From the NCBI GenBank assembly GCA_000091205.1, contig AP006488.2: DNA of 64,000 nt; one strand, written 5' to 3'. The first letter of the stretch is position 1. Each line of letters starts with the position of its first letter. Positions 1 through 64,000 of the stretch are shown here, piece after piece. The translations under genes and the position numbers were made by a program. Source of the stretch: Cyanidioschyzon merolae. Lineage: Eukaryota. The notes beneath the pieces are model-generated. The model saw nothing but the letters and a program-made list of their open reading frames with translations, was not told the origin of the DNA and did no database searches.

Positions 1-546
1 CAGGAAATCATTTATGAGTTTGAAAAGTACACCGGGTTAGCGCAGCAGGAGTACGACGACCAAACTGCACCCGGGAAAGATACAGACATATGCCAGGCGT
101 GGTTAGAGAACCGCTGCGAACGGGGCGACCTCTGCCAGTACCGCCACTCTAGAAGCAAGTCACTGATTGTCTGCAAACACTGGTTACGTGGACTATGCAA
201 AAAAGGTATAGAGTGCGAGTTTGTTCACCGTTTTGAGCTTGACAAGATGCCAGAGTGTTTCTTTTTCAGTCGCTACGGCGAGTGCACCAACGACGAGTGC
301 ATGTACCGCCACGTTGTTGCCGACTCCCGACGTATGGAGTGTCCTTTCTATGCCCGTGGTTTCTGCAAACATGGACCGCGGTGTCGTTACAAGCACGTGC
401 AGAAAGTAGCGTGTGCGAATTATTTGGGCGGTTTTTGTCCCAAGGGACCAGCGTGTCGCTTTGGACACGCCAAGTTTGAGATCGACCTGCAACAGGTGCT
501 GCACGAGGCGGAACGATTCGGTGATCGCAGTGTTTCCTGGCGCTAG
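1..546 (+). CDS. CPSF30/CPSF4-like CCCH zinc-finger protein (5'-partial; ORF enters window in frame 1, stop at 544-546)
   Basis: Frame-1 translation from nt 1 is open. It has five tandem C-x7-8-C-x5-C-x3-H fingers (e.g. CKHWLRGLCKKGIECEFVH, CFFFSRYGECTNDECMYRH, CPFYARGFCKHGPRCRYKH, CANYLGGFCPKGPACRFGH). Spacing and count are typical of the 30-kDa cleavage/polyadenylation factor. Confidence 0.7.
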   Translation, partial: QEIIYEFEKYTGLAQQEYDDQTAPGKDTDICQAWLENRCERGDLCQYRHSRSKSLIVCKHWLRGLCKKGIECEFVHRFELDKMPECFFFSRYGECTNDECMYRHVVADSRRMECPFYARGFCKHGPRCRYKHVQKVACANYLGGFCPKGPACRFGHAKFEIDLQQVLHEAERFGDRSVSWR

Positions 547-573
547 GCAGAAAAGTGCCGGGCGTGTGCGCAC

Positions 574-3036
574 TTACCGGTTCGTGTCGTCGGGGAGGTT
601 TTGGCGGCTCTTGTCGCCAGCACCGCCACCAGCACCAGTGCTGCCGCCTGGTGTCTCTGCAGCAGCGCCCATGCTGGGGCTCAGCGAGGTTGCGTTCATG
701 CCGCGCGGGGCACTCTTCCGCTCAGAACTGAGACCTGCGGCAGCTGCGGCTCGAGCGTCCGCAACCCCCAGACAAGTGCGCGCTACATTGTCCATCAAAC
801 GATGGAGTTCCGGAGCAAGCTGGATAAAGTCACTCTGCCAGAAGCCGTACTCGGGATTCCGTACCAGTTCGAGAAAGACCACGAGGAGGCCCCATGGATG
901 CGGTCTTGCTGCAAACAGGCGCTCAACAAGAACCCTGGCAATCAGTTCACGAATGCGAACGTGTCCGTGGCGAAACAGGTGCAGCAGCGACAGCGCAAAA
1001 AAGCTGGTATGCGCATTGGGGTAGCGAATCTGATTCGCCATCGCGCAAATGAGCAGGAAACGACCCTCGTCATCAAGCTCTTCTGCAAAATGCAGAAAGA
1101 CTGGAATAAAGCTTTCCATTGCCCGGGCCTGCACAGCGTACTGACCCACGTAGAGCACAGCGGCGTTCACAAGCGGCACCACATACCTGCCAAGTGGATC
1201 GTCAGCCCGCAAGCGCGCGGACAAGTTCAACATGAATCCAGTCGGGGCGCCCTGCTGCAGATATTCATCGAGCACCGCACGGAGTTCGCTTCGTCCCAAT
1301 ACTGAAGCTGGATTGGCGCTCAGACGTGGCACCGTATGTATCTTGGTTGCGCTTTCGATGGTCACCTCGGGGGAGAACGGGTCCGGCAGCCGCAACTTGG
1401 ACGGAAACGCACTCAACACCAGGTTTCGTAGCTGCACGCAATGCAGCGGTATGTAATCACAGAGAACCGGCGCCGATTCCACCAAAAGCTCTGGGAAATC
1501 ATGGAGGACTACTAAAAGAAGCCGCAACACACCACGATAAAAGAGGCGCACCGCTGATCTCAATGGCTGACCCTTGGGAACGGCGTTCAGAAAGGGTTGC
1601 AGAAACTCCAGCGCATCCACGAGTAGACGCTGAAAGGCAGGCCAACCGGCCCGTTGCCTACTCAGAAGCATCCTTGGCATTAGCAGCGGACACGAGACCA
1701 GTTCTAGCCACGAAAAAGCGAAGACTGGTGCGACAGCCGGCCGGATGGCGTGCAGCGCAACGCCAAACAAGGACAAAATCTGCGGGCTCGACATGCTCAA
1801 GTCCGGCGTCGAGCTGGCCGGGCCTTCGCTGCCCGCGACTTCGTTGCTAGCAGGGCGGTCATCGTCGGAAGCGTCTTTCGAGTATCGTTCGCGGTCGGTA
1901 TCGTGCAGCGCCCGAGCCAAACTGCGCAAAAACCAGGCAGGAGGTCGTGGGTCCCCAGCATTCCGTAGCAACTGCTGTACTGCCTCCTGCAGCGCAGCCT
2001 GCAGCAGCACCATCCGCTCCGAAAGATCAAGGCCGGGCACTTCGCGAACAAGTGCAACAACGAGAAGCGCTGCCTCATCGACAGCGGATGGTAGCACTTG
2101 ATGTCCGGGTTCCAGCGCGTAAGCAACGACCGCCGGTACCAGCGCATCTAGCTGGAAACGACTCAGTAAAGGAAGCAGCTCACTCAAGGAACTGCCCGAA
2201 TTGCGGATATGCTGCCAGGCGTCCATGAGATGCGCGATTTGTTCCCGTTCGGAGGTATTGCTCACGGCACCTGCGGTGCCGCATTTCTGCATCATCAATG
2301 GGGACGCCTGGAGCGACGTCCCTGGAACAGGCACGCCAGCAAGCGGCGGTGCTGGAGGCAGCATACCAGCCGCACCCGCACCCGCACCCGCCATCTCCAT
2401 AGGCGCAAGCGACGGCGCTGCCGCTGCACTACTACCACCGCCACCAGCACCGCCACCAGCGTTGCTAATGCCTCCAGCATAGGCTGGCCCGGGTGTCTGC
2501 GGAGCTGCTGCATCCAGCAGCCGCGAGTGCAGCACGTCAAAACCGCCCCGCTGCAGTGCGTGCAGGATATCGGGTGTGAGCTCGACGCCAACGCCCAGTG
2601 GATGATCCGCGTCCACGTTCGTGTTGTTGCCCTTCGCGCTCAGGGCTGCACACCAGGAAGCTACATCCGCATGGATTCGTGGCGCCGGATCGCTGAGTAG
2701 TTTGAGCAAAACAACGTGCGTTTCTACAAGGAGACGCACGCGCGCGTCAAGCAGCCACCGAAACACTTTCATCGCCAGCGATACACACAGCCGCTCCATA
2801 TCGCCAAACCGTCGCACCAGCGCAGCGATTTGCTGAAGAACGCGTTTCGTGCCGCCAGCCGCCGAGAGCGTCATCTCCGGATTGGCTTGCAGCTCCGCGT
2901 TCGCCACATTCATCAGCAGCGCGTAGGCCTGCATGAAGCGCTCTTCAGCGCTCACCATGCGCATCAGGGCATCAGGCGATTCCGTGAGGCCCCCCGGAGT
3001 CGACACCGCAGACGCTACTGCTGCTGGCGGTGGTGG

Positions 3037-3075
<39 letters not shown>

Positions 3076-7215: not shown

Positions 7216-9484
7216 ACTAACCGAACAGCGTTATACTTTCCTGCTTGAAACTTTCATTTCCTTGGAAACTGAGAGAGCGCGGTCATCCACGAAGAGCGGA
7301 TAGCGCGCGATGGGTTCCGCGTCATGCGCATGCGCGCTGCCCCGACGACACGCAGAGCGACCCGCGATGCCATGCCGATCAATCTGCGTCTCGGTGCCAC
7401 GTCTGTCCTGTCCAGCAATGTACAGAAGTGTAACAATATATAATTTCATCCCTTCATAGGTAGAAAAGAATCATCGTAGGATAGTTTCGTGCAAGGTCGA
7501 TGATTGAGCAGAGTCGACCTGCGCGTCGATCGTGGACGCATCGCGATCGATCTGCCCGCGAGGCTCGCAGGCGCTCGGCACACGCAAGACACTTGAATTG
7601 CGAGTGGGTACACCATCAGCGTACGCCAGCTTCTTCAAGCGAGGTTCATCGTGAGCGACCAGGGGCGCGTCTTGTGCATGCGCATGGACAGCATGGTCAC
7701 GAGCTATGCGCCGTTGAGTGAGTTTGCCTGCATCCGCTACCGTCGGTGCACATCGAGCTCACGTGAGACAGCGCGTGCATGACATCTGCAAATGCGATAC
7801 ACACGAACGGAGTACGCTTCTGTGCGGCACGTGCGCTAGAAGTGGACGCGCGGCCTTGTAGCAGCTCGATTCGCTTCGTGGCGAGGACGAGGCTTCTGTG
7901 AGTACAGAGCCATGGTGACTTGACGACGATTGCTGTTAGAGTTTGATTCGAACGGGAGATAAAACCCCATCTATATCTGAGGTTACGAACGGCATTCAGC
8001 TTGTTCGCCAGGGTATCTTATCAAATTCGAAAAATTTCTTTGTATGGTTTCGCCAGAGTATCGTAGTATGCTGAACCGTTCCATCTGTTCATGCCGTTCG
8101 ATTCGTGGTTGAACTCTTGTCGTACATTCATGGAGTCGATATTCGAAGTCGAGCACGAAATGCTCAGTTATGCATACGGAATTTCATGATTCTCGGCTTT
8201 CTTTTCGCCGTGGCTCCTTCGACTCTCTGTCGATGGAATTCTTTGCGCCACCGCAGTCAAAATGATTCTCAAGGCCCGAAAACAATGGTTTATTACATAA
8301 CGAATACCGTTATCCCGTTCCTGGATACGCGTCGCCGTGCTTCTCTCTTCCTTACATGCAACATGCTCAAATCGCGCATTCTTCAGATTTTCGAAACTTC
8401 CATTTCAAGGCAAATGATGGATGCAGCGATTCGCACACCACGATGGATGAAGGAAAGATATCGATCTCGTCGCTTGGCGACCTGTCCGCACGCTCATATC
8501 AAATCTACTGACCTTGTCAGGTCAAAAAATGAATTCATATGGAAGGACAAATTCCAATGTGTTTGTGGCTGTCAACTATACGGCATTCCACACCAGCATC
8601 ATCCATCTCACGGAAAATGCTTGCAGACGCTCCCGTCTTGTCTGTGTGCGTGGAGGAGGGCCACGGCCTCGGATTTGAGTCACCATTGCGATCGTATGAA
8701 ATGGAGAATGTGTCATAGGTTTACCCGAAGCGAGAAACGTCGGGTCGAAGTCGCGCGAACTCTCCTGCAGACTGGATTTTCCTTACTGCACTTGTATCAT
8801 TATAGACAGCATCAGGTTCGAAAAATCCTCCACCGAATGAAACATCGTGCGCTTGCACGCACAGCAGGTGACCTACTGGCCTGGGGGATCGCCCAGAGCA
8901 TGCTGGAAATCGTAGTGAGCTGCCCAGCGCGCGCAAACGGAATAGGGCATAAAAGCGAGCCCCCTGTCTCCGTCAAAGGGATGTACACGGCGATGAGGCA
9001 AGCATTCACGCAGCACAGGGCAGCACCTGGACGATGAATCGTGGTGGACACATACGGGAACACCTGACCACAGCCGTATGGCAGCGTTGGAAATGCAGCA
9101 TCCCGACGTTATGCAAGGAATCTGATAATGGCAAGCGATGTATGGATTACAACTCTCGCATGTGCACATCCGCCGACCACAACAGCCGACAACATCGAAA
9201 TTCGAAGTTTTTAACGCTACGATCACCATTCTTTGACTGCTGACAACTCATCCGGGTGCAACGGAGTCACTAGCATATTCGAATCCATAGATAAAAGAGA
9301 AAAATTGAACCAGTTGCCGAAAAACCCGCAAAGACTGGTTCTGATGACAGTAGTACGTGACCCGCAGGTTAGTGTTCATGCGCAAGGTTCAAAGCCTATT
9401 TCCGACATATTCAGAAAAAAGTTTCCCAGAAATCGTTGATCAATCAAAAAATGCCCCATGACTATCGATCGTAAACGTATACCC

Positions 9485-9900
9485 ACTCACAGGTCCCTCC
9501 TGGCCTTTGTCGACGAGCCATCTGCCATTGGCTTCAGCTTTTTCTTGTACACTATGAGTCTGAGAGGCTGCGCTACGAAGTTCGCTTGCCTCATCTCCGC
9601 GGTTGTCGTCGTCAGCACCGCGCATCGTCTGGTATTGATTGCGGCATTGACGTATCGATTCTGGAACTCCCTGCGTGCATTGCAGTCGGCTGGACGCACC
9701 AGTCCAAAGATTACTAAAACTGGTCCACTCAGTGTCGATTTCTTCCCGCCATCGTCCCGTCGGTCGTAAACATTTTTGTCGTCCAATTCCCAGTTTCTTC
9801 TTCTTCCTCGTTACTTGCACTTCTCCATTCTTTGATATGGAAAAAGAGGATTTCTTTCGTGTTTTTCCGGCAGTCGGTGACATCGGCCCTCCGGGAACCT
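9485..9900 (-). mobile_element. Truncated Fanzor/TnpB-like element fragment (3' part with RuvC-III motif), copy C
   Basis: The minus-strand ORF 9487..9786 encodes …NRYVNAAINTRRCAVL…ANFVAQPLRLIVYKKKLKP. It is collinear with the C-terminus of the 34499..35365 ORF (NRDFNAAINVRRCAVL…VNFVGQPLKVELYEKKLEA). Nucleotide homology to copies A and B ends abruptly at ~9485. Confidence 0.55.
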
Positions 9901-10177
9901 CGATTCCCTTATCCGCAATGTTCTTTATTTTTTATTTCTGAAAAAGAGCGTAATTTGAACGCGTCTGCTATAAACCGCGAAAACACGTTTCATGACACGC
10001 ACCTGGCGATTGAACCCAACTGAGGTAAAAGACGATGCTTTGCGGTGGCGTCAACGTCGATACCTCTCGTACGTTAGAGCTTCATGCAAATGATAAGAAA
10101 CGTGTTTCCCTTCAACGCCAAGACGCATATCGTGTTTCATGCCTTCCAGATGTGGAGCTGCACGTATCTGTCGCGCT

Positions 10178-10900
10178 ACAGAAAAGGAACAGAAACGACC
10201 CATTAACTAGCATCTGGATAAAATTTCATTTCCCTCGCTATGGTAACCGTTGAACGAGAGAAAATCTTTCCATATTGCCGAGAGTTCAGCTTACAGGCAA
10301 AGGGTCCTGCGAGCCGAACGAGTCTCCCAGGCTCGTGGTTCATGTCCCTCTCTCTCAGTGGCAGGTGCTTCAATGCGATCTGAGCAACTCGTCTGCAACG
10401 CAATTCATTCTGGGACTGGGAGCGGGTATGCTCCGTCTAGGTGTCGCCCTGCTTTGCGGGAGTGTCCTAGCACACCGCTTCGCGCTGTCGCAGGAAGTAG
10501 GTCCGTTAGCGCAGCTTGCAGGCTCCCGGAATTATTATATACGCCATTCCCGTGTTACGCGAACCACGCCTCGAGCCGACGTCCGCTGTCGTATGGCAAC
10601 GCCGTTCTATCTGCGTGCTGCATCAGTACCAGAGGTGGGAGCGCAATGCCGGATGTTCACGGCGTGCATTCGGCGCACAATAGAACGTCTGAAGCGACCA
10701 GTATATATCCGGGAACAGGTCATGGAACTTGGAGGTAGGGTGCAGCATGATACACGCTTTGCTGAAAGCCATTATCCATCTTGCAGTCTGGGATCCATGG
10801 TCCATGGAAACGTTTCGTCATCGAAGAAAACGGCGCCGCCAGCGACGCTTCCGAACGAAGCACCCATAACGTTCCTCAATTTTCCAATAAAGTCCATAAA
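10178..10900 (+). repeat. ~730-bp interspersed repeat 'R', copy 1 (non-coding; paired with copy at 31983-32720)
   Basis: Collinear 65-75% nucleotide identity with 31983-32720. Shared blocks include gaaaaggaacagaaacgacc…aactagca, attctgggact, ggtgtcgccct, cgcttygcgctgtcgc, gtatggcaacgccgttct, gcagcatgat…gctttygctgaa, ggatccat. Confidence 0.6.
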
Positions 10901-11571
10901 AATCCGATATCGTCTATACCCAATCATCCAAAGCGCCACCATCGTGCAGTGCGCGGGAAAGCGAGTCCCAAAGTGCATGTGCCGGCGGGTGCTGGCCTCC
11001 GATCTGTTCGTGTGCGTGCGGTGCGCCTCCGCAGCAGCACACCATGCAAGGCGGTGCCATCGAGTGTCCAATTTCGGCACCGGGCGGTGTCGTGTTCACC
11101 ATTTCGCGCGCCGTGCGTGTCGTGCAGTCGACTTCCGTACGACAGACGCTGCCTGACGAAACATACTGCACACGCACGATTTCGGTGACTGTCTGTCCTC
11201 CACGCGGTATTGCGTGGAATCGATGCCTAGATCTCCAGGGGTGTGCGTCGAGGAGCAGAGGACCGGAACCTACCCGGTGACTTTGAGTGCGTTGGACTGC
11301 GTGCTGCTAGGTGCACATTTCGCTGAAGAGGAGCGTAGACGGGCGCTGCGTTCCGCGGTTGGAGAGCTTGAGACCAGTCTTGCGCCGTGAGGCGAGTTGG
11401 TCTCTATCTGGGTAGAAGAGACTCTGGGGCGTGAGCTTTTAAGGGGAAGCTCTACGAAGGTGGCGCGCACTTGTGCGGAACGAGCGCATGCGCGACTTGA
11501 AGCAGTCTCGCTGAACTGGGTCTCAACGACAACGATAGCTCTTTGTTTATCAGTTGTTGTGATTTGGAAGA

Positions 11572-13500
11572 ATGGCGAGTACTGGACCTGATTATTTGTT
11601 GTTTCTCGATATTCAGCGACTATTTGGGGATCGGGGTGCTTCTGAAGTCTTCCGTCTCGCGTGGCTGGTTGGTGATCGGCGCGCACGCGTTCTCGATGCC
11701 AAGCAGCTGTACGTGCGACCGGTCTCAGCTGCACTACGTCAGCGTCTGCGATCGCTCTTGCAGCCTTCGGATGCCGGGGCGGAGCGTATTGTAGAGGCAC
11801 TCGAGGCGGAGAGTGACAGGCGAGGCGTATATCCTGTACTCATCAGTAACGATATTGCAGTCATGTATAACTTAGTCGATGCAATCGAGGAGCTGGCCGC
11901 TTATTCGCGTCAAGCTTTTGTACAGTATGATCGTCGATTTGGGACCGTGGTCGCTAGCAAGGGAATTCTGATGCAGCTTGTACACGACTTGGAACAGCAG
12001 CTGCTCCAACAGGCGGCAGTAGGACCCGAATCCGAGACGGTCATTCGGAACTCGCTCGATTTGGTATTAGGGGACTACTACATATGTCCAGTGCGCAGCG
12101 CCGTCGGTGCAGATGCGTTTGCAGCCTGCCGAGAAATGCATACACGATTCGCCCAAGACGGAGGCATGTTTATCCCGGAACACTTTTCTTGGAATAGTGG
12201 ACTCATGCGATCGATGCCGCGAAACGGATACGCCTCGGGTACATTGCCATACATTGGAGCGGATATGATGGTGGGTGGCAGCTCATGGCCCGGAGCATTC
12301 ATGCCTGCACAAAGCGTGGCCATGGGCATTCCTGCGCAAATGCCACCCGTGAGGAGCCACCGAGATGCGCTTGGCATCGGAACGCCATTTGCCGGTGGCG
12401 AATTGCTGGGGACAGCAAGTACCGCTCGAGCACCACAGTCAGTGGTTATCCCGTCCTCGACCGCTAGTGCGGCAAGCACTGTAGCACCGGCAACACCGGT
12501 AGGCAGCGTCGTGCGCCTACGAGGCTTGCCATGGTCTGCGACTACGCGTGACGTTGCTGAATGGATTCGACAGCCGCCCGCGAAGGCCACGATGGGTGCA
12601 GACTCGTCCTTATTGGAGGATTTCATTCGCCGCCCGCTGCAGGTTCTCCCCGGAGGCATTGTGTTCGTCTACAATCACCAGGGGCGCAAAACTGGCGAGG
12701 TCTTCGTTCAGTTTGCCTCTCCAGAAGATGCCTCACGATGCCTCCACAAGCACGAGGATCGCATGGGCCATCGCTATATTGAAGTTTTCCTGTCATCACA
12801 CCAGGACATGTGGAATCTACTCAGCCGCTACGAGGCAAAAAGGGCCGCCCTCGGTCTAGGAGCAGCCGGGAGCCCCGCAGCAACCAGTGGGGCACAAGTA
12901 CGAAACGGTAACCGCACGGATCGTGAGCTGGGGTTGAGCCCAGCTAACGTATCCCAGCAAGCGAGCGCGGTAGCGATGGGTGTCCCGCTTCGTCAACCAG
13001 GCGACTGGACGCCAAGTTCGGCGACATTCCGGCCCGAGATGGTGTCGCACACACCACCGGAAGGGCTTGCGCCTGTCGTCCAGGCTGGAACTTCAGCATC
13101 TACTCGTGAAGGCCCCATGGACCTGATGTCGGCGACACAGTCTCCTTGTCTGCGTCTTTCGGGAGTCGATGCCACCGTCACAGAGCGTGACGTGCATCGT
13201 TTCATAGCCCCGTTCCAGCTGGATACCAGCCAAGGTGCAAGCATACTCGCTTGCTTCGCTGATCATGGGGTCAGAGTGCCTCCGGGGACCACAATCCCTC
13301 CGGTCTTCACGGTGCGCAACAGCACCGGTCAACCGAGTGGTGAATTCACCCTCGTTTTTCAAAACGTATCGGAGCGAGATCGAGCCCTTTGCAAGTCGGG
13401 GCAATTGCTGGGATCCCGTCCAGTCAAACTCTCCAGCATTTCTTGTTTCGAACTCGCTGCCGCCTTGGGTATACTTGGAATCACTAGAGCTGGGGTGTAA
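11572..13500 (+). CDS. hnRNP F/H / GRSF-like RNA-binding protein with three quasi-RRM domains
   Basis: VVRLRGLPWSATTRDVAEWI…GEVFVQFASPEDASRCLHKHEDRMGHRYIEVFLSS matches the qRRM signature of hnRNP H/F (RGLPW…RYIEVF.SS). There is a second RRM-like module near the C-terminus (CLRLSGVDATVTERDVHRFIAPF…EFTLVFQNVSERDRALCKSGQLLGSRPVKL). Confidence 0.75.
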   Translation: MASTGPDYLLFLDIQRLFGDRGASEVFRLAWLVGDRRARVLDAKQLYVRPVSAALRQRLRSLLQPSDAGAERIVEALEAESDRRGVYPVLISNDIAVMYNLVDAIEELAAYSRQAFVQYDRRFGTVVASKGILMQLVHDLEQQLLQQAAVGPESETVIRNSLDLVLGDYYICPVRSAVGADAFAACREMHTRFAQDGGMFIPEHFSWNSGLMRSMPRNGYASGTLPYIGADMMVGGSSWPGAFMPAQSVAMGIPAQMPPVRSHRDALGIGTPFAGGELLGTASTARAPQSVVIPSSTASAASTVAPATPVGSVVRLRGLPWSATTRDVAEWIRQPPAKATMGADSSLLEDFIRRPLQVLPGGIVFVYNHQGRKTGEVFVQFASPEDASRCLHKHEDRMGHRYIEVFLSSHQDMWNLLSRYEAKRAALGLGAAGSPAATSGAQVRNGNRTDRELGLSPANVSQQASAVAMGVPLRQPGDWTPSSATFRPEMVSHTPPEGLAPVVQAGTSASTREGPMDLMSATQSPCLRLSGVDATVTERDVHRFIAPFQLDTSQGASILACFADHGVRVPPGTTIPPVFTVRNSTGQPSGEFTLVFQNVSERDRALCKSGQLLGSRPVKLSSISCFELAAALGILGITRAGV

Positions 13501-14454: not shown

Positions 14455-16165
14455 ATTCAGAGTCACCTACCAGCCTTTTTTGACCGGCTGCCTGCAACCG
14501 GTTTCAGCTTCTTCTTGTACACTTCGAGTATGACTGGCTACCCTAGGAATTTGGATCGCGTCAGCACCTTGGGGCTCTTCCTCAGAACCGCACATCTTCT
14601 GATATTGACAGCGGCGTTCCAGTCTCGGTTCACGACCTCCATGCGTTAGGTGCCACTGACGGAACGCACCAGTGCAGGGGGTCGTCGATGTCGCACCCTT
14701 GGTGCCCTTCTCGCTCTGTCAGCGCTCCGTGCTTTTCTATTGCCGGAGCGCTCCACTGACTCTTCCCGACCGCGACTCTCTGAAGTGTACACCCCAGCGC
14801 ATCCTTTGGATTGTGATTTCTTCAAATGAACGCTCTTGTTTATGCCTCTAGGTAAGGTCCGTTTCTGGAGAAGACGGACTTGCGGAAGAAAGACGACATC
14901 CACCCGGGCGTGACACTGTGTGCTGAAAGCTTCAGCGATTCGCCCAGTGGAGCGATCATCAGCTTGCAGGATAGAAAAGGCTCCTTCGATTCTGTTCAGC
15001 CACGGAGCGTACGGAGGAATGGAACGCAGCTCGAATCCGCGGCAGCATCGGCCAAAGCTCGAACGTATGCGACGTGGAGGAATACCACGTTCTCCCATAG
15101 AGGGATGCTACCAGGCGTCAGGGACAAAGGTCTTCAACAATTCGATAAAGTTGTTGCTGTAGTAGGAGCCTTCCCTACGAGCGAAACTGAGCACGCTACT
15201 GGAATCCGCTTCAGTTAGAACAGATGATGATATCCTCGTTCTCTTCGAATTCGATCGTTCATACAACGTGCGCCCTGCGCTGCGGATACCTGTAGATGCT
15301 CCGATCGTTTCGGCCGAAGCAAGTCTCATGGACTGAAACAACAACAAACCAGTACTACTCTGCTTCATACAGATCGCGACGCTCTAGAGACACTGCCGTT
15401 GCGACTTTGGTGCAAGATGGCCATGCATGAAATCGGACGGTTTGGCGACTGAATCGCTGTGTTTTCAGGACCACACAAACGAGATGTTGATAAGCAGCGA
15501 CGCCCATGGTGGCTTCTACCGTCGCTCCAGCTTCCCCTGAAATGATCAATCGGTCGTTTTCTACCATAGATCCGAAGCACGCTTTAAGAATGTCTTTTTT
15601 TAGCGCGGAGCGCATCCACTTGTTTGTCACTGTGTTCCCCAACCATCTGCGTACTGTGGCATGACTGACCAGAAAGAGGAACGCAGTCCTCGTTCTACTG
15701 TTCCGTACTAAATGCGTATCCAACGGGCAACTCGTCTACGATTGATTCAGTACATGGCATCCGGAATTCGATCTCCTGCTATATACCACATCTGAGGGTG
15801 AATCAAGATTGACTTGGGAGACTATGTTCATCGAACGAGTGCTGCAGAGCGTATCCATCGCTTGAACCGGTATTAGAGTTCGAATTTTTTGGAGATGTTT
15901 GTCTGATTGGATACGGCATCTCGGGTAGTTTCTAAAACCGGTTTATCGCTGCAGGTAATTCCAAAGTTTGGTACCTGTAATGCAGTTTCCTTCTCGTTGC
16001 GCGATGATTCCAGAGCGTAGGGCGCGGTGCATCGACCCCGTGAACCGCACGGTACGCCAACACTGTCCCGTTTCCGGATGACGCTCGATGCAGAATGCTT
16101 TCCTGCCCGGCACACGTACTGATCGAGCCTGCACTGGTCGGCAGAGCATCGGAATGGGGCTCATC
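14455..16165 (-). mobile_element. Degenerate Fanzor/TnpB-like element, copy B (pseudogenised; multiple short ORFs)
   Basis: The reverse complement of 14600-14640 encodes VVNRDWNAAVNI (RuvC-III). Region 14460-14620 has ~70% nucleotide identity to 9490-9650. The minus ORF 15355..15723 has …ENDRLIISGEAGATVEATMG…, collinear with the RuvC-I segment NDFVVGADPGSTNIITIA of copy A (catalytic D->E). The region is broken into 4+ ORFs by frameshifts and stops. Confidence 0.5.
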
Positions 16166-20179: not shown

Positions 20180-22504
20180 CTAGGGAGCAACATTCAGCAG
20201 GAGACGCCACAGCGCATAGTTCGGCAGACCAATGAGCCCGGTCTCGCGGCGAATGCATTCAAGCATCTCGTAAAGCCGCTCTCGCGGGGCCTCCCGATCC
20301 GTAGAAACCGCTCGTTGTGAAAGCACGGCAAGAACAGTGGCCAGCACACGATAGCTTCCAGCGCTTGTGAAATAGACAGCGCTTCCTCGCTGCAGCACCG
20401 CTTCTGCTGTCGCCACAGCTTTCAAAAGCGCACCTTGATCTGTACCCGTTTCTGCGGCAAGTGACCCGTCATCGGGCCATTCTGCTGTCATCAAGAGGCG
20501 ATTGCTGGGCAATGGCACCAGAAGCAGACGAATGCCCAGGCGCGTCGCACTTACTTGGAGCTGTTCCCGCTCCGCTGGGTTTGTACAGTGGACACGTTCG
20601 TGTGGTAGAAAAACGATCACGAGTCCGAGTGACCGGTCGGTAGACGCGGCTACGAGTGAAACGAGCGTCGTTTGGAGCTGTGTCGCAGAGAGGAAGGGGC
20701 CCACAAGCACTGCAGGATTCACCGATAAGCTGATCAAGGTTGGCGTTGTTGCCGTACTCGGCGGCGAAACGATATCCTCGCATACCATCGTGTGATTCAG
20801 ACAAGTGGTTTCATCGCACAAACGTCGAAATCGTGTCGGTCGATGTTCGTACTGAATAGCGTCTTCTGCTTCCGATTCTATTGCGTAGATATATTCCACG
20901 TCATCCCACGGCGGTCGGACAATGCTGAGTTCCCAGGTATCGGGCTCCGAGGCCGCACGCTGTAAGGCCACAAGACCTGGTTGCGTCCATAGCCCCAGTT
21001 GATACACGTCGCCGGTGGCGTAGACTTTCTTGATCAAATGCTCGGGTTGAGCAGGAGCCACTGGCCTTTCGATATGCACGCGCAACTTGATCAACGTAAA
21101 AGCATCTTGCACTGCTTCAATGTAGTCGTGAACTCGAACCGGTTTGGAAGCACTCGAACGCGAGACCGAGCGAACTCGAGGACGAAAAGCATCCAACCAT
21201 GCGTTATCCGTTGAGGAGTGTCGCAGTATCGATTCAGCTGTGGTGATAGAGGCTGCGCCTGTGCGTTGCACGCTGTATGCAGGCACTTCAAATATTACTC
21301 GTGTTGCGCGTCGATCACCTAAACGGTCGTCGAGAAAGAAATATACGTAGCGAATGGATTCGCTGGTGAGTGCGCCCGTCGAAAACAGCGCTACAGTCAG
21401 GTAAAATGTGCGTCGCTGAACAGAGAATTCCAGCTTACGAGCGACGTTCAGATTCCAGCTTCCCAACTCCATCATGTTGCCTGTCATGCAAAGACTCAAG
21501 TGATTCGCAGCGGCTTCCATTTGTTGTAGCACGCTGTCGTCACACTGAACGGCAAAATGAATGCATACATGTCCGGGTGATGAGGTTCTCTCGGCAACAG
21601 CGGTATCCGTTTGTTGCGCTAGCACGCTGCTCGCCGGCATGTGTGCGGCTTTCTCTAGGAAAGGTGCTGCTGAGTGGTGTGCACCACCAGCACGCAACAC
21701 GGAAGCGCTGCTGGTGCTCTCTAGGAAAGGTGATGCTGAGTCGTGTACACCACCAGCATGCAACACGGAAGCGCTGCTGCTGCTGCTGTTGTTGTTGTTG
21801 TTGTCCGTCGCAGCAACGCGAGTATCGCATTCCGTTCGTGTGAGGGAAGGCAGCGGTTCCGCCTCCGCCTTTGGCGATGGGGTGACTCGACTCGCTGGCG
21901 GCGTCCGTAGCCTTACGTCCAAGCGAGGGTGCACGGTGTGCGCACTCATAGAGCACTGCTTCGACGCCAGCGCTGCCTCGATATGCTCTTTCTGTGACCG
22001 GGTTTGCAAGCGAGGACGCAGTGCAGAAGCGCCTGGCAAGACGTCCAGCTGGAGCACCAGCGCTGGCGCGAAGTATGTGCTTCTCTTGGGCAAAAACTGG
22101 CTAGAGACGGACTGCCATATCGACGCATAGCGGTTCTCAAGCGCAGCCAACCGAGCAAGCTTCCAGTTCGAGGCGGTTCCTTGGAAACAGTTTGGAACCT
22201 CAAGCGCTGTGAGTCGAAGCGTGCTCACTGCTTCAGGGTCCCTGGCAAGGAATCCAACACTCGGTACTCTCGCTTGTATAAGCCGCTCAAGTTCCAATGA
22301 ACCAGACGGCACTTGCCCTTCGTCCGGGCGTTTCAAGCTCTCTGACGCCGGTGTCAGGTTCCAGACTGCGTCGCGAGGCGATAGCCTCCGCTCGGAGACA
22401 CGGCAGGAAAGCCGTTGTTCCCATTCCAGTTTATGTGCTGAGAGGTCCGTACAGTCCAAGAAGACTCTCGTCCCGTAGTGGAACGGAGGTGCTGCAGTAG
22501 CCAT
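20180..22504 (-). CDS. Laforin-like protein: two CBM20-like starch-binding modules + C-terminal dual-specificity-phosphatase-like domain with Thr in place of catalytic Cys
   Basis: There are two segments with the CBM20 topology and key aromatics (VCIHFAVQCDD…MELGSWNL…FYLTVALFS…IRYVYFFLD; IKLRVHIERPV…YQLGLWTQ…DTWELSIVRPPWDDVEYIYAIE). The C-terminus has WPDDG(general-acid-like)…x30…AVYFTSAGSYRVLATVLAVL, which aligns to DSP VLVHCxAGxSRSxTxxxAYLM with C->T and H->F. The N-terminal 250 aa are low-complexity (poly-N/S, internal duplication). Confidence 0.45.
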   Translation of the reverse strand: MATAAPPFHYGTRVFLDCTDLSAHKLEWEQRLSCRVSERRLSPRDAVWNLTPASESLKRPDEGQVPSGSLELERLIQARVPSVGFLARDPEAVSTLRLTALEVPNCFQGTASNWKLARLAALENRYASIWQSVSSQFLPKRSTYFAPALVLQLDVLPGASALRPRLQTRSQKEHIEAALASKQCSMSAHTVHPRLDVRLRTPPASRVTPSPKAEAEPLPSLTRTECDTRVAATDNNNNNSSSSSASVLHAGGVHDSASPFLESTSSASVLRAGGAHHSAAPFLEKAAHMPASSVLAQQTDTAVAERTSSPGHVCIHFAVQCDDSVLQQMEAAANHLSLCMTGNMMELGSWNLNVARKLEFSVQRRTFYLTVALFSTGALTSESIRYVYFFLDDRLGDRRATRVIFEVPAYSVQRTGAASITTAESILRHSSTDNAWLDAFRPRVRSVSRSSASKPVRVHDYIEAVQDAFTLIKLRVHIERPVAPAQPEHLIKKVYATGDVYQLGLWTQPGLVALQRAASEPDTWELSIVRPPWDDVEYIYAIESEAEDAIQYEHRPTRFRRLCDETTCLNHTMVCEDIVSPPSTATTPTLISLSVNPAVLVGPFLSATQLQTTLVSLVAASTDRSLGLVIVFLPHERVHCTNPAEREQLQVSATRLGIRLLLVPLPSNRLLMTAEWPDDGSLAAETGTDQGALLKAVATAEAVLQRGSAVYFTSAGSYRVLATVLAVLSQRAVSTDREAPRERLYEMLECIRRETGLIGLPNYALWRLLLNVAP

Positions 22505-22526: not shown

Positions 22527-22836
22527 GCCCTTCTCGAGCGCAGTACACTGCGACCTTTTCTGAACCGCTGTTGTTACCAGCTTCAACAGCCTTAGCCTCT
22601 AAGGTTTGGCTTTGGCGACCCAGTGCAGTGCCCTTCTCGAGCGCAGTACACTGCGACCTTTTCTGAACCGCTGTTGTTACCAGCTTCAACAGCCTTAGCC
22701 TCTAAGGTTTGGCTTTGGCGACCCAGTGCAGTGCCCTTCTCGAGCGCAGTACACTGCGACCTTTTCTGAACCGCTGTTGTTACCAGCTTCAACAGCCGTA
22801 GCCTCTAAGGTTTGGCTTTGGCGATCCAGTGCAGCG
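22527..22836. repeat. 103-bp tandem repeat x3 in the divergent intergenic region between the laforin-like gene and EDC4
   Basis: The unit gcccttctcgagcgcagtacactgcgaccttttctgaaccgctgttgttaccagcttcaacagccttagcctctaaggtttggctttggcgacccagtgcagt recurs at 22527, 22630 and 22733. It produces three overlapping near-identical artefactual ORFs (MKLVTTAVQKRSQCTALEKG…). Confidence 0.9.
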
Positions 22837-31777: not shown

Positions 31778-31982
31778 GACCTCCAGAACGTCTCAAACTA
31801 CGCACTGTTTACCAGGTAGGGTCAAACGCCCCCACGATCAGGCCCGAAAGACTCTGCCTAAGCGCTCGTGTTCGGCTCTGCGCTCTCCCGAACGTCGAGC
31901 GAATGACCTGTTGCGTAACTGCTGCCGCGGCGGCGGCAGCAGAGGCGAATGATGAGACCCAGCGCTTACCGAGTGCGCACTA

Positions 31983-32720
31983 TAGGAAAAGGAACAGAAA
32001 CGAACCTCTAACTAGCAAAGAGATCACATTTTCTTTCCTTCTCTATGATAAACATTAAAAGGGGGAACATGTTTTCGATATTTTAGAACGTTTACGTTAT
32101 CGGCGGTAGGTTCCGCGAGCCGGACAAGACTGTCTGGGCTAGTGTATCACGCTCGTCCCGGTGGCGGGTGCTGTAGTGCGGTCTGAGCTGCAACTCGTCC
32201 AAACTGCAGTTTATTCTGGGACTTGATAGATTAGATCTCTTCCGGGTGTCGCCCTCGTTGCGGTGGACTCCACGTATATCGCTTTGCGCTGTCGCGTGCA
32301 GTGGGTTTGTCTGCGGAGCTTGCTGGCTCCGAGAATGATCATATACTCCGACTCTGTGTCAGGTGAAGCATTCCTCGATCCGACGCCCTCAGTAGTATGG
32401 CAACGCCGTTCTGTCTCTGTTATGCATCGGCATCAGCGGATTAGAGGGTAAGGCGGGTGCATCAACGCATGCACCCGACGAATGACAGGAAGCACGAGAC
32501 GAGTAGTACATCCGAAAGGAAGTATACGTAATGGAATCTGGAGTTAGAATGCAGCATGATGGATGCTTTCGCTGAATCCGATACCCATGCATAGCGCAAC
32601 CTCGGATCCATTGTCAATGTGAGTGTTTTTCCATCGGAAAAATGAAGCACGTAGCTCTATCGTACAAATTGTAACGATGTTCAAGTCGTAGAAAAGTACA
32701 TTGTTTGTCCTCAATTGTGT
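31983..32720 (+). repeat. ~730-bp interspersed repeat 'R', copy 2, directly 5' of the Fanzor-like copy A
   Basis: See copy 1 (10178-10900). The same order of conserved blocks ends at the start of the Fanzor-like N-terminal ORFs. Confidence 0.6.
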
Positions 32721-33743
32721 TTCAACCTTCACACTAATGTATTCAAGTGCTTTTTCGCGCGTAATAGCTGTCCCATCCAAAGCGGTTTCGGTTTTTATAT
32801 TGAAAAAGGAAAGTTACGGAAGGGGAATTGGAGGATCCTGGGCGCCAGTGTCGCCGGCAGCCCGAAAAAACGAAGAACAGTGCCAAGTCCAAAGGAACAA
32901 GAGAAGAAGAAGAAGAAGAAGAAGTAAAAGCGGGAGGCCCTACGTCAAAGGCTACACAAAAGACGACGGTACGACGAGATGGCGGTGAAAGCCTGTCTTC
33001 TTCAACATACCAAGGATCCGTACAGGGAAAACGTTCGAGAGGCAATCTGGAACCGTGTCGAGCCGAACTCAAGCGGTGTCCGTGACGCTTCCCAAGGAAT
33101 GGCGCATTTCCTAAGGGAATGGTATCACGACGTTACGGACACCAAAACAGTCGAGGTTCTGGAAGAAATTTTCAACAAAACCTTTATTCATCACCGGATG
33201 CTTGGCACCGGGGAAACGTCTAGGTGAAATGAGCGAGTTCATGCCCTCCACAAAATTTACGCCGAATTCCGCTTCGACGGTACTCGATACAGGGGGGGAT
33301 TCGAATATTTACACCTACGGGGCGATGAAGTACCTCACCAGTCTAAAGAACCATTTAACAATGAACCCCAAAAACTTCGATCGCCAGCATGAAAAGGAGA
33401 TCGAATTCATCGACGAGACGACATCACTCAGGGGCATGAACGAGGATTCCGTCATCCGTACGGTTATACAAGAGCATCGTGCTGTCTTGGGACTGGCGAA
33501 TCCAGCAGAAAAGATATCAGAGTGGAAAGAAGATAAGGAACGATACTATCGCCTCATCCTACGGTATTTCGTGTTTTTTGGCCGAGAACTCGAACGCAAG
33601 GCAGAGATGAAGCTGAGTGGGGAAAAAATGAAGAATGGGAGAGACGAAAGGCTGCGCTTCTGGGTAAGAGCTTAAACATCGTTCCGTTGTGAAACATCAA
33701 GTCACATTTTAAGACTATCGACTGCAGAGTCCTTCATGACATC

Positions 33744-34502
33744 ATGAAGGAGATCTGTCCGGAGTTCGATGAACGGAAGACAGAGTTCACCGCTGAAAAC
33801 CGGGAGACGTACTTGAAGAGTATCCTCAATTTCAAACGTCTCAAAGTAAGCAAGAAAAAGAAATTCACTGGGATGATCGAAACCGATGGAGTATCTATAT
33901 GTGTACACGATCGGCGGTTGAAGGTGGATCGTCCAGTCCTGCCTTCAGCCTCGCCCGTGACGAAGCATGAAGGTGAGAAGGAGGCGGATCCTGCGATGCA
34001 GGAGTTGGAGGATAACGACCTTGGCGTTGACGTGGCGAAGCATGAAGAAAAGGAGAAGGCTGTTCCTGTGACTCAGGAGATAGAGCATAACGACCTTGTC
34101 GTTGACGTGACGAAGGATGAAGAAAAGAAAGAGGCGGATCCTGTGATGCAGGAGATGGAGGGGAACGACCTTGTCGTAGGCGCGGCGAATCATGAAGATG
34201 AGAAGGAAGCGAATCCTACCACGCAGAAAGCGCATGAGAACGACTTTGTAGTTGGCGCGGACCCCGGAAGCACAAATATCATAACCATCGCTGCTCCCAA
34301 GCTCGCGGAAGATGGTATTGACGGGAACTTGCGTCAGAAATATATGCGTCTTCTGCGGCTCTCGAGAGCGAGATACTATCGACAATCGGGAATCATGAAT
34401 GCGAGGAAGAAAATCGTTACGTGGAATGTAGGAATGAAAGAGCACCTGGAAGCTCTGAGTGAGGTGACGAGCCGAGGAGCGGACTTTCGAGCTTTTCGGT
34501 GA
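33744..34502 (+). pseudogene. Fanzor/TnpB-like nuclease, middle segment with RuvC-I motif and 25-aa tandem duplications
   Basis: GADPGSTNIITIAAPK is preceded by four 25-aa acidic repeats (…KHEGEKEADPAMQELEDNDLGVDVA / KHEEKEKAVPVTQEIEHNDLVVDVT / …). It ends in a stop that is frame-shifted relative to the next segment. Confidence 0.5.
33956..34255. repeat. 75-bp tandem repeat x4 inside the Fanzor-like ORF
   Basis: The period is 75 (cgtgacgaagcatgaag… at 33956, 34031, 34106, 34181). It encodes 25-aa repeats ending in NDLVV/NDFVV. Confidence 0.85.
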
Positions 34503-35365
34503 TTCATGGAAGTTCGCGTTGCGCATTGGGATGCGCTATGGGAGGAGTATACCAAGCCCCGGTGGGCTCGTCTGCGTATGAATCGATACGGTGGGAAGCA
34601 GCGGGCGTTCGCGAATTTTTCAATCAGCCGAGCGCCTTGAAGGAGGATCAAAGTCAGAGGCTCGTAGTAGCGTATGGGGCACGGAGCTGGAAGACCAAAA
34701 AAGGGTGTACGCCAGCTCCAACGACAAGGGTGTACAAGGAGTGCGCACGGCGTTTCGTTACAATACCTGTAGATGAGTTTCGAACATTGTATACACACCA
34801 TGAACTGGGTTGTACACTTCAGCGAGTGGAGATGGAAAAGTGCCACAGGAGCCCTGAGGAAATAGCAAAATACGGACCGTTGACGGAGGAGCAAATGGAA
34901 AGGAGGGTGAACGTTCGTGGATTACTTGCACTAGTAAGTACAACCAGTGATGGCAAGAAACGTATGGAGTTTGTGAATCGTGACTTTAATGCCGCAATCA
35001 ATGTACGGAGATGTGCGGTGCTGGAGAATAGACTTCCAGAGTCGACAAGAGTGAACTTTGTTGGACAACCTCTCAAAGTCGAATTATATGAGAAAAAGTT
35101 GGAAGCAGTCGTAGGTGGCCGGTCGAGAAACGGCGGGAAGGCGTCTGCACATCAGCTGGACACGTTATGTCTAGGGCGCGGTTTTCCCGCCACTACGGTA
35201 CACTGTCGGCGACGTCGTTCGACTTTCGAACGGCGTTTGGAGGCGCGGCTTTGGCGGGAAACGCTTGGTGGGCGCTATCTGCTCCAAACGCTCTGTGTTC
35301 AACGTCATACGGTTTACGTTTTGACGCTTCATGGATTGGCACGCGGCTCCAGTTTACTATACTGA
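34499..35365 (+). pseudogene. Fanzor/TnpB-like nuclease, C-terminal segment (Cys-rich region + RuvC-III D-x-NAAINV)
   Basis: GTG-initiated ORF in a different frame from the upstream segment. It has the NRDFNAAINVRRCAVLEN motif. The tail after ~35160 is read-through into the MCM5 5' region. Confidence 0.5.
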
Positions 35366-54718: not shown

Positions 54719-54796
54719 GAGGATGCAAACGGTAGGGGGAAGTGCTGGAACTTTTCCCTCAGTAGGGATGTTTATGACTTTTTGAATCGAAGTATG

Positions 54797-55150: not shown

Positions 55151-57730
55151 GGATTTACGATTGTGTCTGCGGACAAGCGCTTTCGACGCGTTGCTGCTGG
55201 CAGCGTTGACCTGGTCGGCATCAACATGCTTGGCGACACCCTCGAACAAGCGCTGGTAAAACTTCCGAACGCATGATCCAAGTGAATGCGTACATGGCTT
55301 TGCGGCGCTCTGTTCCTTCGATATACGGTCCTGGAATCAGGTATTCTTCCAGTTTTCGATTATTCCGTTTCACGAGGACTCGTGAGGTACAGGTATTCGC
55401 GACGCGGGATGGACGAGGAAACATATTCAGCATGGTCTTTTGAGCGCTATTTCACGAGCTTGTTCAGAAATCTTCTCGACATTCCCTTTTTGCATCAGCG
55501 ATCCAGTTTGGGAGAATTTCGTGCGTCTCTCTGTGGTGATCGATGAAACCGCATTTCACATGAGCAGCTGGATATCTCTAAAAGGATACGAGCCCAGAGA
55601 TTTCCGTGGCTTTTGATTGTGCGGAAACGGGTCCTGGGTACGGGCTTGAATCATCCCAGCGATCATATTAAGTGACGCGTCCGATACGATTTGCATAAAG
55701 GACGCGGATACGGATGAACGAATTCCGACTTGCTTTCCAGTTCGACAGTTCTTTTCGAAAATTCTTCCATGATAGGTAGCATCTCGTTTTAAAATGCTGT
55801 ATTGAAGCGAATAGCATGCGGCTTCGCGTGCCTTGCAGAGAGCACTTTTCGAAAGGCTAGCCCCGAACAAGCTGGTGTTCGAGGGGTACAGCCCCAGGCG
55901 CTGCTCCTGGAGATTTCATCAAGGCGCGTCTTCTGTGGCCGTCATGGGCATCAGCCAAACGATGCAGCAAGCGTCCACGCGTCGTAGAGCATCCAATGGA
56001 GGTTAAGGATAGGTGAACACATCGGTATACCTGCATTCAGTCACGGGTTATCAATACGAGGCGTGCGCCGAACTTGTATACGTAGACGACGACATTGCCT
56101 GGGAAAACGCAGATCGCAACGAATGTCCTTTTCCCGTGATATGCATCGGCAATAGTTGAGAATTCCTAAAATCGACACGTGAATCTTTGCACCAACAGCT
56201 TCCGACTGCTCGTTACAGACCGAGATGAGAACTGGAGACCGCTGTATCTAAATTATGAGGTACGAGAGAAAAATGAAAAAGCTGAAGACAAAGAACGACA
56301 TGGATGATTTTGATCACTGCAGGAAGATGCTCAAACATCACTGTATCCGTATGAGCCAAGATGCGCTGTTCCCATTTCATTCTGAAGTCGGTTTAGCATT
56401 GCGGAGAGCGCATGAGACACGCTCTATATGTGGATGATCGCTCGATCAAGAGCAGGGTCTTTTATGAAAAACTTGCACCATCTTTGTGGAATACCTTTGC
56501 ACGCGAATTGTGCAGAGCATTTTGTTTTGCGTTCATCGGTATGATTCCGCTCTTCCTCGATGGAACACCATTTCAGAATATTCAGATCCTGAGCGCATGT
56601 CCGGAGATTTTATTATATTCTTCTGCAGACCAGAAGCTGTTGTACTTCAAAGGCTTTCGGAGAGATTCCGAACCCTTCAAACGAGCACGGGACGGCGCCG
56701 ACTGCCGTTCGTCTGCGAATACCCATGCAAAACGCAACCCGAGAAACGCGCCAACAACCTGCACGCGACGGAACCGCAGTTCGACGCCGCAGCGAACTGC
56801 ACCATCTCAAGGCAGTGCAGGCGAGCCCTGCTCTGAGCAAATCAAACCTGGAATCCCGAGCCGAAGCCCGCATTGGTATAGCAAAGCCGCTCTGTCTCCG
56901 GTTTGCATCCGCAGCGGCGCTATTGGTGCTACCGCAGACGCTCACGGCGGGCTCGTCGCACGATAGCGTGTAAAACATAACCACTGCATCCGAGCCAAGT
57001 ACATGGAGTCTAAATTGAATATAGGTGGAACAGTGGATGCTTTTCTAATCGCTGATATTCAGGGCCCAATCGGGGATGCCTGGTCCATGTAAACTGTCCG
57101 TCAAGCGAGGAATCCCACCGACAAGCCGCATAATAAGAGGCGACAATCGAGCTGCACTGCCACTGAACGTACGAAAGTGCGCTAAAAACTCCAGTGCGCA
57201 TGTCGTAGCCTTCAAAGCCGCTTGATGCGTCGATTCTGCGGGAATCCGCCGGGTCACCGCGCGCTTTCAGGACTCGGGACACGTATGACCCGTACCAGTC
57301 GATGGGTTGCTCATCAGCGCTCATCCACATCGGCCTAGAATAGACAAGTGTACCTTGACTACGCTCAGCACAACACGGCTTGCCTGAAAAAGTCAGAAGC
57401 GGCACTGGTCCTGGTACGTGCTCGCTGTGTGCTCTTGAGCGACCACCAGTCATGCAACTGCGCAAAGTATGCGTACGGAGCGCAGCGAATCCATTCAGCT
57501 TGTGCTGTAAACTAGATGCGTCCAGAGCTTCGCGCCACACGAAGCCTTTTCCGGGCCAAAACCAGCAACGATGCCATCTCGTGTTGCATGCGATAAACTG
57601 GGGCGTGCTGCTTCACAGCGCGTACAAATCGAGTTCGTGTATACGCCGGTCTACCTGCAAGCGAACAGCAGCTGACCAAGCACGCCCTACCCTGTGCCGT
57701 ACGGGATTCGCATTATTCGCAGGCATTCGG

Positions 57731-62799: not shown

Positions 62800-63014
62800 T
62801 TCTCGAAGTACAAGTGCTCAAAGCGCTTTCGAACCCAGACCCCCAAAAAGGACGATACCACAAACGTGGTCGCTATTCGCAAACCGCCCAGAAACGTCAC
62901 AGGCAACGAGCGTTCAGGTCTTTCTGGCAGGTTTCCGTACCGCGCAGGGACAACCGTCGTAACACCTTGCGCAGCGCGCCGCATATCGAGGCGATTGCAC
63001 CTGCGCGCGCGAAA

Positions 63015-63350: not shown

Positions 63351-64000
63351 ATGCATATATACACATCAAATGCCCACAGATCGAGAAGCGGCACAGGGGC
63401 GCTGTTGGAAACCGAAGAGAGCGCCTACCCATGGGCTATAGAGCGTGGCGTGCGCGATGACATGCTGCCGGCCTGCGACGGCATGCTGGTTGAGTTTCAT
63501 TGACAAGGTGGAATGTAGGAAAGCAACATTATATCCGAGAGGACGTATGGGTCATGGAACTTGACGGTGGCGTCATGAATGATATGCGCTTTCTCGAATG
63601 TCGATGTTGATCGTGCAATTTAGGATTCTTCGTGTGTGCACACGTTCAGTTCAGTAAACGACAACATAGATCGTTGGTGCAAACTCATCTGTAGAAGCAG
63701 CGATGGCGACGATCTTCTTCATGATGCGCGTACGGCGTATGCGATTCGACGTCAGTGCATCCGCGTGAATATCAAATGGAACGGGGCGCGATCACAGGGG
63801 CTCGCAGACGAGTCTTTGGGCACGGTATGCTTCCAGCGTCAATCATAAAGGACTTTGGGGTTTGCTTTTCCGCTTTCATGTATCCGGTTTTCGATAGGCT
63901 GGCCTTTGTTATTCCACCGGTGCTGCGCTCAGTAGTTGTGGGATGATGATAGCAATATTCAAGTCAAGATTTGGTAGTTTTCTGTTGTTTCATGCGCATG

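Follow-up and report, generated by a model that had tools for sequence, protein, structure and literature searches.

The repeat R of the window (the whole 64,000-nucleotide stretch of Cyanidioschyzon merolae DNA that was analysed) belongs to a transposon family that is already known. Based on the statement of Bao and Jurka (2013; Mobile DNA 4:12) and on the consensus of their CMe-1A element, R is identified by its sequence as TE-N2_CMe, which equals positions 1-635 of that consensus. R is best read as a SINE-like retroposon that would owe its 3′ tail to a non-LTR retrotransposon (LINE) and is joined to the left end of a Fanzor element. We consider it quite probable that this reading, in which TE-N2_CMe was joined to the Fanzor core and the composite was then amplified, explains the feature as a whole. 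The LINE-tail origin of R is new, as we did not find it in the literature searched, and the recurrent joining of LINE or R termini to the Fanzor left end is likewise absent from that literature.

CMe-1A was described as a Fanzor1 family of C. merolae with ~150 copies that are ~80% identical to a ~3-kb consensus, and its 5′ 635 bp were reported to be 95% identical to the entire TE-N2_CMe, an element of ~70 copies (Bao and Jurka, 2013, Mobile DNA 4:12). Both elements lack terminal inverted repeats (TIRs) and were listed in that report as of unknown class. An earlier genome paper reported a 253-copy, 3.2-kb interspersed element with a WSV486-like ORF (Nozaki et al., 2007), which is the CMe-1A family. 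We aligned the 3169-bp CMe-1A consensus from the supplement of Bao and Jurka (2013) to the window. Consensus 1-967 matched 10823..9855 with 76.6% identity, 1-663 matched 32636..31962 in inverted orientation (78.4%, E 6e-153), and 740-3169 matched 32651-35235 directly (80-87%), while 2881-3077 and 2737-3077 matched 9693..9496 and 14802..14466, respectively. Over the whole ~635-bp module, both R copies match consensus 1-635 at 77-78%, which is typical for a family whose copies are ~80% identical to their consensus, and the alignment of this segment to both copies identifies R with the published module. The initial annotation had offered two readings of R, as the non-coding 5′ portion of the Fanzor transposon or as an independent non-autonomous element, and both agree with the published record, the former as CMe-1A 1-635 and the latter as TE-N2_CMe; R occurs solo too. 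The features of the window that belong to this family are as follows.

9496..9693, minus strand: Fanzor C-terminal fragment (called copy C in the initial annotation), consensus 2881-3077
9855..10184, minus strand: Fanzor core left end, 5′ UTR and first codons, consensus 636-967
10185..10823, plus strand: R copy 1, CMe-1A consensus 635..1, in R's own (retroposon) orientation
10824-10846: A-rich tail, then GC-rich flank, past the terminus of R copy 1
14466..14802, minus strand: further Fanzor 3′ fragment, consensus 2737-3077
31962..32636, plus strand: R copy 2, CMe-1A consensus 663..1
32637..32650: junction from the A-rich tail of R (GAAAAATGA...) to a truncated second element
32651..35235, plus strand: CMe-1A #2, Fanzor1 core, without consensus 1-739
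56829-57109 (R profile, E 2e-27), plus strand: partial R/LINE-tail 3′ fragment, 5′-truncated; by the CMe-1A consensus, 253..13 = 56857..57094, plus strand, LINE-tail profile E 4e-17
63511-63628 (R profile, E 5.5e-16), plus strand: short R/LINE-tail 3′ fragment; by the CMe-1A consensus, 144..30 = 63511..63626, plus strand, also matched by the LINE-tail profile

Comparison of the window with itself by BLAST aligned 10172-10829 with 31976-32642 at 68.2% identity over 677 columns (E 9.3e-52), and MAFFT and a repeat finder concurred on the homology of R copies 1 and 2. A collinear repeat of ~730 bp had been described at these positions, and this homology is real, but its length had been overestimated: because homology ends at 10829 and 32642, the R unit is ~660 bp rather than 730. 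The last ~75 nt that had been assigned to copy 2 (32643-32720) are Fanzor 5′ region, and 10830-10900, which had been assigned to copy 1, is flank without relation to R. The shared blocks that had been listed, such as GAAAAGGAACAGAAACGA, GTATGGCAACGCCGTTCT, and GCAGCATGAT, do occur in both copies. On the 5′ side of copy 1, homology to related loci runs past 10178 into the Fanzor left end. Full-length R copies form a star-like family with pairwise identities of 60-71%, and a profile of R detected two further partial copies inside the window, which are the last two features above. Tandem repeats are present in the window at 62940-63430, 54748-55200, 22527-22835, and 21652-21783, with periods of 14, 50, 103, and 66 nt, and the 14-nt array adjoins the small LINE-tail fragment at 63511-63626.

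In the canonical CMe-1A, as represented by the consensus, R lies antisense to Fanzor. Given this arrangement, the alignments identify R copy 1, the adjacent left end, and the C-terminal fragment as one internally deleted CMe-1A on the minus strand (~9496-10823). The left-end segment 9855..10184 forms a single HSP with R copy 1 against the consensus and is collinear with 9311..8333 of locus L005, and the fragment at 9496..9693 carries the RuvC-III motif NRYVNAAIN. The deletion in this element spans approximately consensus 968-2880, and the last ~90 nt at its right end are eroded. A nested or rearranged insertion had been suggested from the opposite orientations of copy 1 and the C-terminal fragment, a suggestion that we withdraw because opposite orientation is the canonical arrangement. 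The 20 nt past the terminus of copy 1 (reverse complement, GCTGGCGGCGCCGTTTTCTT) are similar to the terminal portion of the Fanzor right end as published, GCTGGCGGCAGCGTTTTTCTT, with an alignment score that was reached by 0 of 2000 shuffles, and flanks that combine GC-rich sequence with a T run also occur at some, not all, other R copies. A remnant of a DDE_3 (Tc1/mariner-type) transposase (14948-15035, minus strand, PYAPWLNRIEGAF) lies immediately upstream of the further Fanzor 3′ fragment (14466-14802); its Pfam E-value of 7.5e-5 falls short of the curated cut-off.

The second copy has a different context. R copy 2 can be split into R proper (31990-32636) and a 28-nt remnant of the Fanzor left end (31962-31989, consensus 636-663), and the Fanzor left end is the canonical neighbour of R's 5′ end. 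The presence of these 28 nt on the 5′ side identifies copy 2, at the level of sequence, as what is left of a CMe-1A on the minus strand (#1). At locus L064, which shares the junction of copy 2, element #1 is retained to consensus 1267 or beyond. On the other side, the R tail abuts a 5′-truncated second element (#2), and the alignments thus depict the copy 2 locus as a head-to-head junction of two truncated CMe-1A elements. The same-orientation fusion of copy 2 to Fanzor, which the initial annotation had taken as the basis for linking the two, is therefore the rearranged configuration. The Fanzor gene of #2 is a pseudogene: its start codon reads ACG instead of ATG, six indels shift the reading frame, 78 nt are deleted, and the 75-nt coding repeat is present in three additional copies; its ORFs still show RuvC motifs. 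The 75-nt tandem repeat (33956-34260) encodes acidic units of the form KHEEKEKEA..QE.E.NDLVV and varies in copy number among loci, with the window copy carrying +225 nt relative to the consensus. When 34500-35331 was compared with L001, a metagenome strain with 99.2% identity, a 1-bp indel within the pseudogene was found to shift the end of the last ORF.

The MCM5 gene that adjoins the Fanzor-like ORFs matches C. merolae 10D MCM5 at 100% identity, and 10 kb of the window align at 99.2% identity with a contig from a JGI hot-spring metagenome, which indicates that public metagenomes contain related strains and species for comparison. In Cyanidiococcus, the orthologous intergenic region between the RRM gene and the gene encoding a 2213-aa protein contains neither R nor Fanzor; this region is 1.1 kb and transposon-free there, whereas it measures 4.4 kb and contains the deleted CMe-1A in the window. 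An empty-site comparison with Cyanidiococcus and Cyanidium found R and Fanzor absent, with intergenic DNA too diverged to give the insertion boundaries. Relative to Cyanidiococcus yangmingshanensis, the block comprising the zf-CCCH gene, the 2213-aa gene, and the RRM gene is inverted and lies ~22 kb from MCM5 (spans compared: window 10-12864 and 31778-35331; L099). One breakpoint of this inversion is the Sec23-MCM5 intergenic region, which is the site of the head-to-head CMe-1A pair.

For comparison among related loci, we gathered ~100 loci through Fanzor homologues and a single search of metagenomes for a degenerate R motif; every copy that does not lie in the window stems from hot-spring metagenomes and not from the complete 10D genome. 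These loci contain 37 distinct R-related copies. A dispersed repeat that is never adjacent to Fanzor had been named as the finding that would speak against a link, and instead the Fanzor left end was found at the 5′ end of R in nine of the 12 full-length loci. The R-to-Fanzor junction is identical at these nine distinct loci, and at three of them (L009, window copy 2, and L064) Fanzor also abuts the 3′ tail of R; the 'sandwiches' at L009 and L064 consist of two Fanzor elements that face one R. The remaining three full-length R copies are solo and have ends at consensus 617-639 (L006, 5-639; L032, 4-636; L052, 7-617). Fanzor cores that start at consensus 638-671 exist without R and have the same left boundary, and they lie beside LINE (L006, L008, and L026), LINE fragments (L003, L036, L093, L081, and L077), or unrelated DNA (L014). 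The shared junctions, the solo R copies, and the R-less cores thus show that R is strongly linked to the Fanzor core yet separable from it.

The Fanzor core measures ~2.5 kb (consensus ~638/671-3169) and has discrete ends that bear hairpins, and the fragments derived from it are internal-deletion forms that recur and retain both ends. Composites of R and Fanzor are mostly full length, whereas LINE copies are heavily 5′-truncated. Several other arrangements were considered and rejected. The Fanzor core as a sense-strand retroposon was set aside because its fragments are internal-deletion forms and many of the apparent truncations are contig ends. The idea of R as an invertible cassette between inverted 75-95-nt segments ('S') was dropped because S is the outer Fanzor left end, and that of one transposase acting on both R and the Fanzor core was dropped because their ends share no significant similarity. 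Among the 100 loci, R never occurs as a direct pair flanking an internal region, as a solo LTR would suppose, and C. merolae is reported to be without LTR elements.

The initial annotation had stated that R contains no conserved ORF, which our translated comparisons bear out: tblastx between the R copies yielded ~50% identity, stops interrupted every one of the six frames, and no frame was favoured. As tblastx is uninformative for neutrally decayed transposon copies, the family consensus was also checked, and it showed no stable ORF and no Pfam match at E <= 1 in any stretch. The position and orientation of R are like those of tnpA in IS605, and the published consensus has a 118-codon open stretch, which together could point to R as a decayed second gene, such as a TnpA-like transposase divergent from Fanzor. 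However, that open stretch splits into different frames in an independent 12-copy consensus, the Pfam result is negative, and R is instead homologous to a LINE 3′ UTR, so that we regard a decayed gene as very improbable.

R adjoins Fanzor, and it contains 95 invariant columns where 44 +/- 6 are expected from a uniform-rate model, an excess partly inflated by locus ascertainment, which could suggest that R is the omega RNA of Fanzor or some other structured non-coding RNA or leader. Comparison of R with Rfam gave nothing at the gathering threshold and nothing at E <= 10, and a tRNA scan of R found none. The structure conservation index was 0-0.27 in every 120-nt window on both strands, RNAalifold predicted 0 pairs for the best-conserved R core of 26 copies, and the sole candidate hairpin was paired in 72.7% of cells versus 69.9% in shuffles. 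On present evidence, the earlier proposal of a leader or structured RNA therefore finds no conserved fold to stand on. Furthermore, a review places the omega RNA of TnpB and Fanzor on the strand of the nuclease ORF, where it lies at the 3′ end of that ORF or overlaps it and runs into the right end of the transposon, whereas R lies on the 5′ side of Fanzor and antisense to it, and Fanzor cores occur without R. As R is non-coding by its sequence and shows no conserved fold, we conclude that it is not the Fanzor guide RNA, and a structured RNA of any kind has hardly any likelihood.

The right end of Fanzor (35190-35235) has features of its own. It terminates in the hairpin CGTTCGA-CTT-TCGAACG followed by GCG, and a variant, CGTTTTTC-TTTT-GAAAGGCG, preserves the pairing. 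The flanks just past this end are G/T-rich (TTGATGG and GTGGTGG), and RNAalifold of 17 copies gave -10.6 kcal/mol with one covarying pair. This hairpin is likely the 3′ end of the omega RNA.

The evidence for a LINE-derived tail comes from a reverse transcriptase element that was found through an ORF beside R-like sequence in L003 and ORFs upstream of Fanzor in L006. The element encodes an RVT_1 domain (E 8e-15) and is 82-85% identical to a sequence annotated as 'retroelement, alive [C. merolae 10D]', and we used as the LINE reference a 4.3-kb composite of this RT-encoding non-LTR element. LINE copies share a common 3′ end at 4273-4293 with A-rich tails, are truncated on the 5′ side at 161, 3023, 3155, 3204, 3557, ~3720, 3999, 4092, and 4194, and, in the case of the younger fragments, have clear target-site duplications of 8-12 bp. 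R consensus 391-577 matches LINE 3985-4176 (77.6% over 192 nt, E 3e-38), and weaker, collinear flanking blocks extend as far as the terminus that the two share. A profile for which LINE 3′ ends were the sole input matches R copy 1 at 10559-10831 (E 7e-30), where it reaches the LINE terminus, and R copy 2 at 32347-32569 (E 3.4e-32). Both R and LINE end in ...ACGT(C/T)TTGTCA(A/T)(T/C)G, after which come runs such as AAGAAAAC, GAAAAA, and AAAAAAA. From these matches, the 3′ ~280 nt of R clearly, and ~500 nt weakly and collinearly, appear as descendants of the 3′-terminal region of the LINE. The 5′ ~125-350 nt of R have no convincing match to LINE or any RNA family, and neither the tRNA scan nor Rfam detected a tRNA-, 7SL-, or 5S-type head as in a classical SINE. 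The matches of R to the LINE reference and to the LINE-only profile are thus what lead us to describe R as a LINE-tail-bearing module that is probably SINE-like, and the want of a Pol III-type head is why we do not call it a classical SINE. Around the old solo R copies and the composites, no target-site duplications were found, with none above control. At L038, a 565-nt LINE 3′ fragment (9307-9874, minus strand) sits in the Fanzor 3′ region with a perfect 12-bp target-site duplication (ATCCAGTCTACG), and L026, which has the 3′ flank of L038, is built differently on the 5′ side, a pattern suggestive of recombination among copies.

We infer both a trans-mobilisation of R by the LINE reverse transcriptase and an order of events that would yield the composite. 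The enzyme would copy R in trans by target-primed reverse transcription through the shared 3′ tail, one R copy would have been joined by its 5′ end, head to head, to the left end of a Fanzor core, and the resulting composite of R and Fanzor would have been amplified to give the 3.2-kb CMe-1A. Because composites, unlike LINE copies, are mostly full length, the composite may move at the DNA level and not through the R tail.

This last point is shared with a reading that we regard as possible although on the unlikely side, according to which R is the left arm of a single DNA transposon and contains cis-acting termini, a promoter, or both. R would then move only with Fanzor, in an IS200/IS605-like or Helitron-like manner with end bypass, and solo R copies would be leftovers of precise excision of the Fanzor core. 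One R-to-Fanzor junction recurs at nine distinct loci, the published consensus includes R, and the deletion derivative in the window keeps R together with the Fanzor 3′ part, all of which a single transposon would explain, as it would the fragments of the Fanzor core that keep both ends in place of random 5′ truncations. Hairpins at the left end (GCGCTC-GGT-GAGCGC) and right end (CGTTCGA..TCGAACG) of the core, and a weak one at the tip of R, point the same way, as do the solo R copies that stop at the core boundary. However, the tail of R is homologous to that of a LINE and continues into A-rich runs, the identical left boundary of the core also occurs beside LINE, LINE fragments, or unrelated DNA instead of R, and no transposase is associated with the family. 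Between the ends of R we found no inverted repeat, in agreement with Bao and Jurka (2013, Mobile DNA 4:12).

A retrotransposed unit that comprises the whole composite, with antisense Fanzor joined to R or to LINE, is a further candidate, in which an RNA that runs from the Fanzor right end, antisense, to the R or LINE tail would be copied by the LINE reverse transcriptase. The outer end of the canonical composite is in every case the 3′ tail of R or LINE, with A-rich sequence behind it, and three types of composite share one architecture: Fanzor with full LINE (L006 and L008), with deleted LINE (L026 and L003), and with R. Positions 2313-5997 of L006 and 1-3673 of L008 are 95.7% identical across the 5′ 1.1 kb of LINE and the entire Fanzor core, and the identity stops at the Fanzor right end, where the neighbouring genes differ; a shared block with different flanks means that a head-to-head composite of Fanzor and LINE is present at two loci. 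Two composites that lack 80-170 nt on the right-end side and one 8-bp candidate target-site duplication at composite L054 also fit a retrotransposed unit. Nevertheless, target-site duplications give no signal over controls, composites are rarely truncated while LINE copies almost always are, and copies that consist of the Fanzor core alone could not arise in this way; we judge the retrotransposition of whole composites to be improbable.

The Fanzor left end directly adjoins the 3′ tail of a LINE or of R at L093, L081/L030, L077, L036/L069/L047, L009, and window 32637-32650, and the tails at these joints differ (TAAAAA, AAAAAAAAGAA, AAAAAAA, GAAAACGAA, and GAAAAATGA). These tail-side joints fall on the Fanzor left end at consensus 638, 660, 703, and 740, and the joints on the 5′ side involve LINE positions 1, 5, and 3023, or R. 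The Fanzor left end begins with the palindrome GCGCTC-GGT-GAGCGC, and LINE or R termini are joined to the tip of the core in both orientations. The joints look like several independent events at one spot. We raise, as a rather doubtful idea, that the C. merolae Fanzor1 family is mechanistically coupled to the non-LTR retrotransposon. Two forms of coupling would fit: Fanzor could be carried in antisense orientation within the 5′ part of a retrotransposon and be spread by reverse transcription through the R or LINE tail, or LINE reverse transcription could repeatedly repair or prime breaks made at the Fanzor left end. According to a recent review, no retrotransposon that carries Fanzor is supported by evidence.

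As the re-discovery of a published repeat, R itself adds little knowledge. Its practical value lies in a correct annotation of the window, with an internally deleted CMe-1A at ~9.5-10.8 kb, a head-to-head pair of truncated CMe-1A elements at 31.96-35.24 kb that contains a dead Fanzor gene, and two small LINE-tail fragments. The LINE-tail finding, a by-product, may be of greater consequence, as CMe-1A and TE-N2_CMe have been of 'class unknown' since 2013, and an R module that would be a LINE tail offers a concrete and testable way to assign them to a class. A further question that it raises is whether Fanzor elements can be linked to retrotransposition, a link that current reviews consider unsupported. 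The LINE-tail origin and the recurrent joining at the Fanzor left end merit a whole-genome check.

Several known systems resemble R in part. Like omega RNA genes of TnpB and Fanzor, R is non-coding DNA linked to a Fanzor gene within a transposon, but it is at the wrong end and on the wrong strand, lacks a conserved fold, and is something that many Fanzor copies do without. MITE-type derivatives are likewise short non-coding elements that share one end of a longer element, and the copy-1 element is, as they are, an internal-deletion derivative, here of CMe-1A; R differs from a MITE in that it shares only one CMe-1A end and has no TIRs and no fixed target-site duplication. With SINEs, LINE-tail-sharing retroposons, and HAL1-like families, R has in common a LINE-homologous 3′ region, a common 3′ terminus, an A-rich tail, and the occurrence of 5′-truncated fragments. 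In contrast to SINEs, R has no Pol III-type head (tRNA, 7SL, or 5S), is long for a SINE at 635 nt, shows no detected target-site duplications, and is in most copies welded to a Fanzor core. From the published TE-N2_CMe and CMe-1A 5′ module, R does not differ in kind, save that the context of copy 2 is non-canonical, inverted, and head-to-head; both come from the same organism, share the same Fanzor boundary, are free of TIRs, and occur solo as well as attached.
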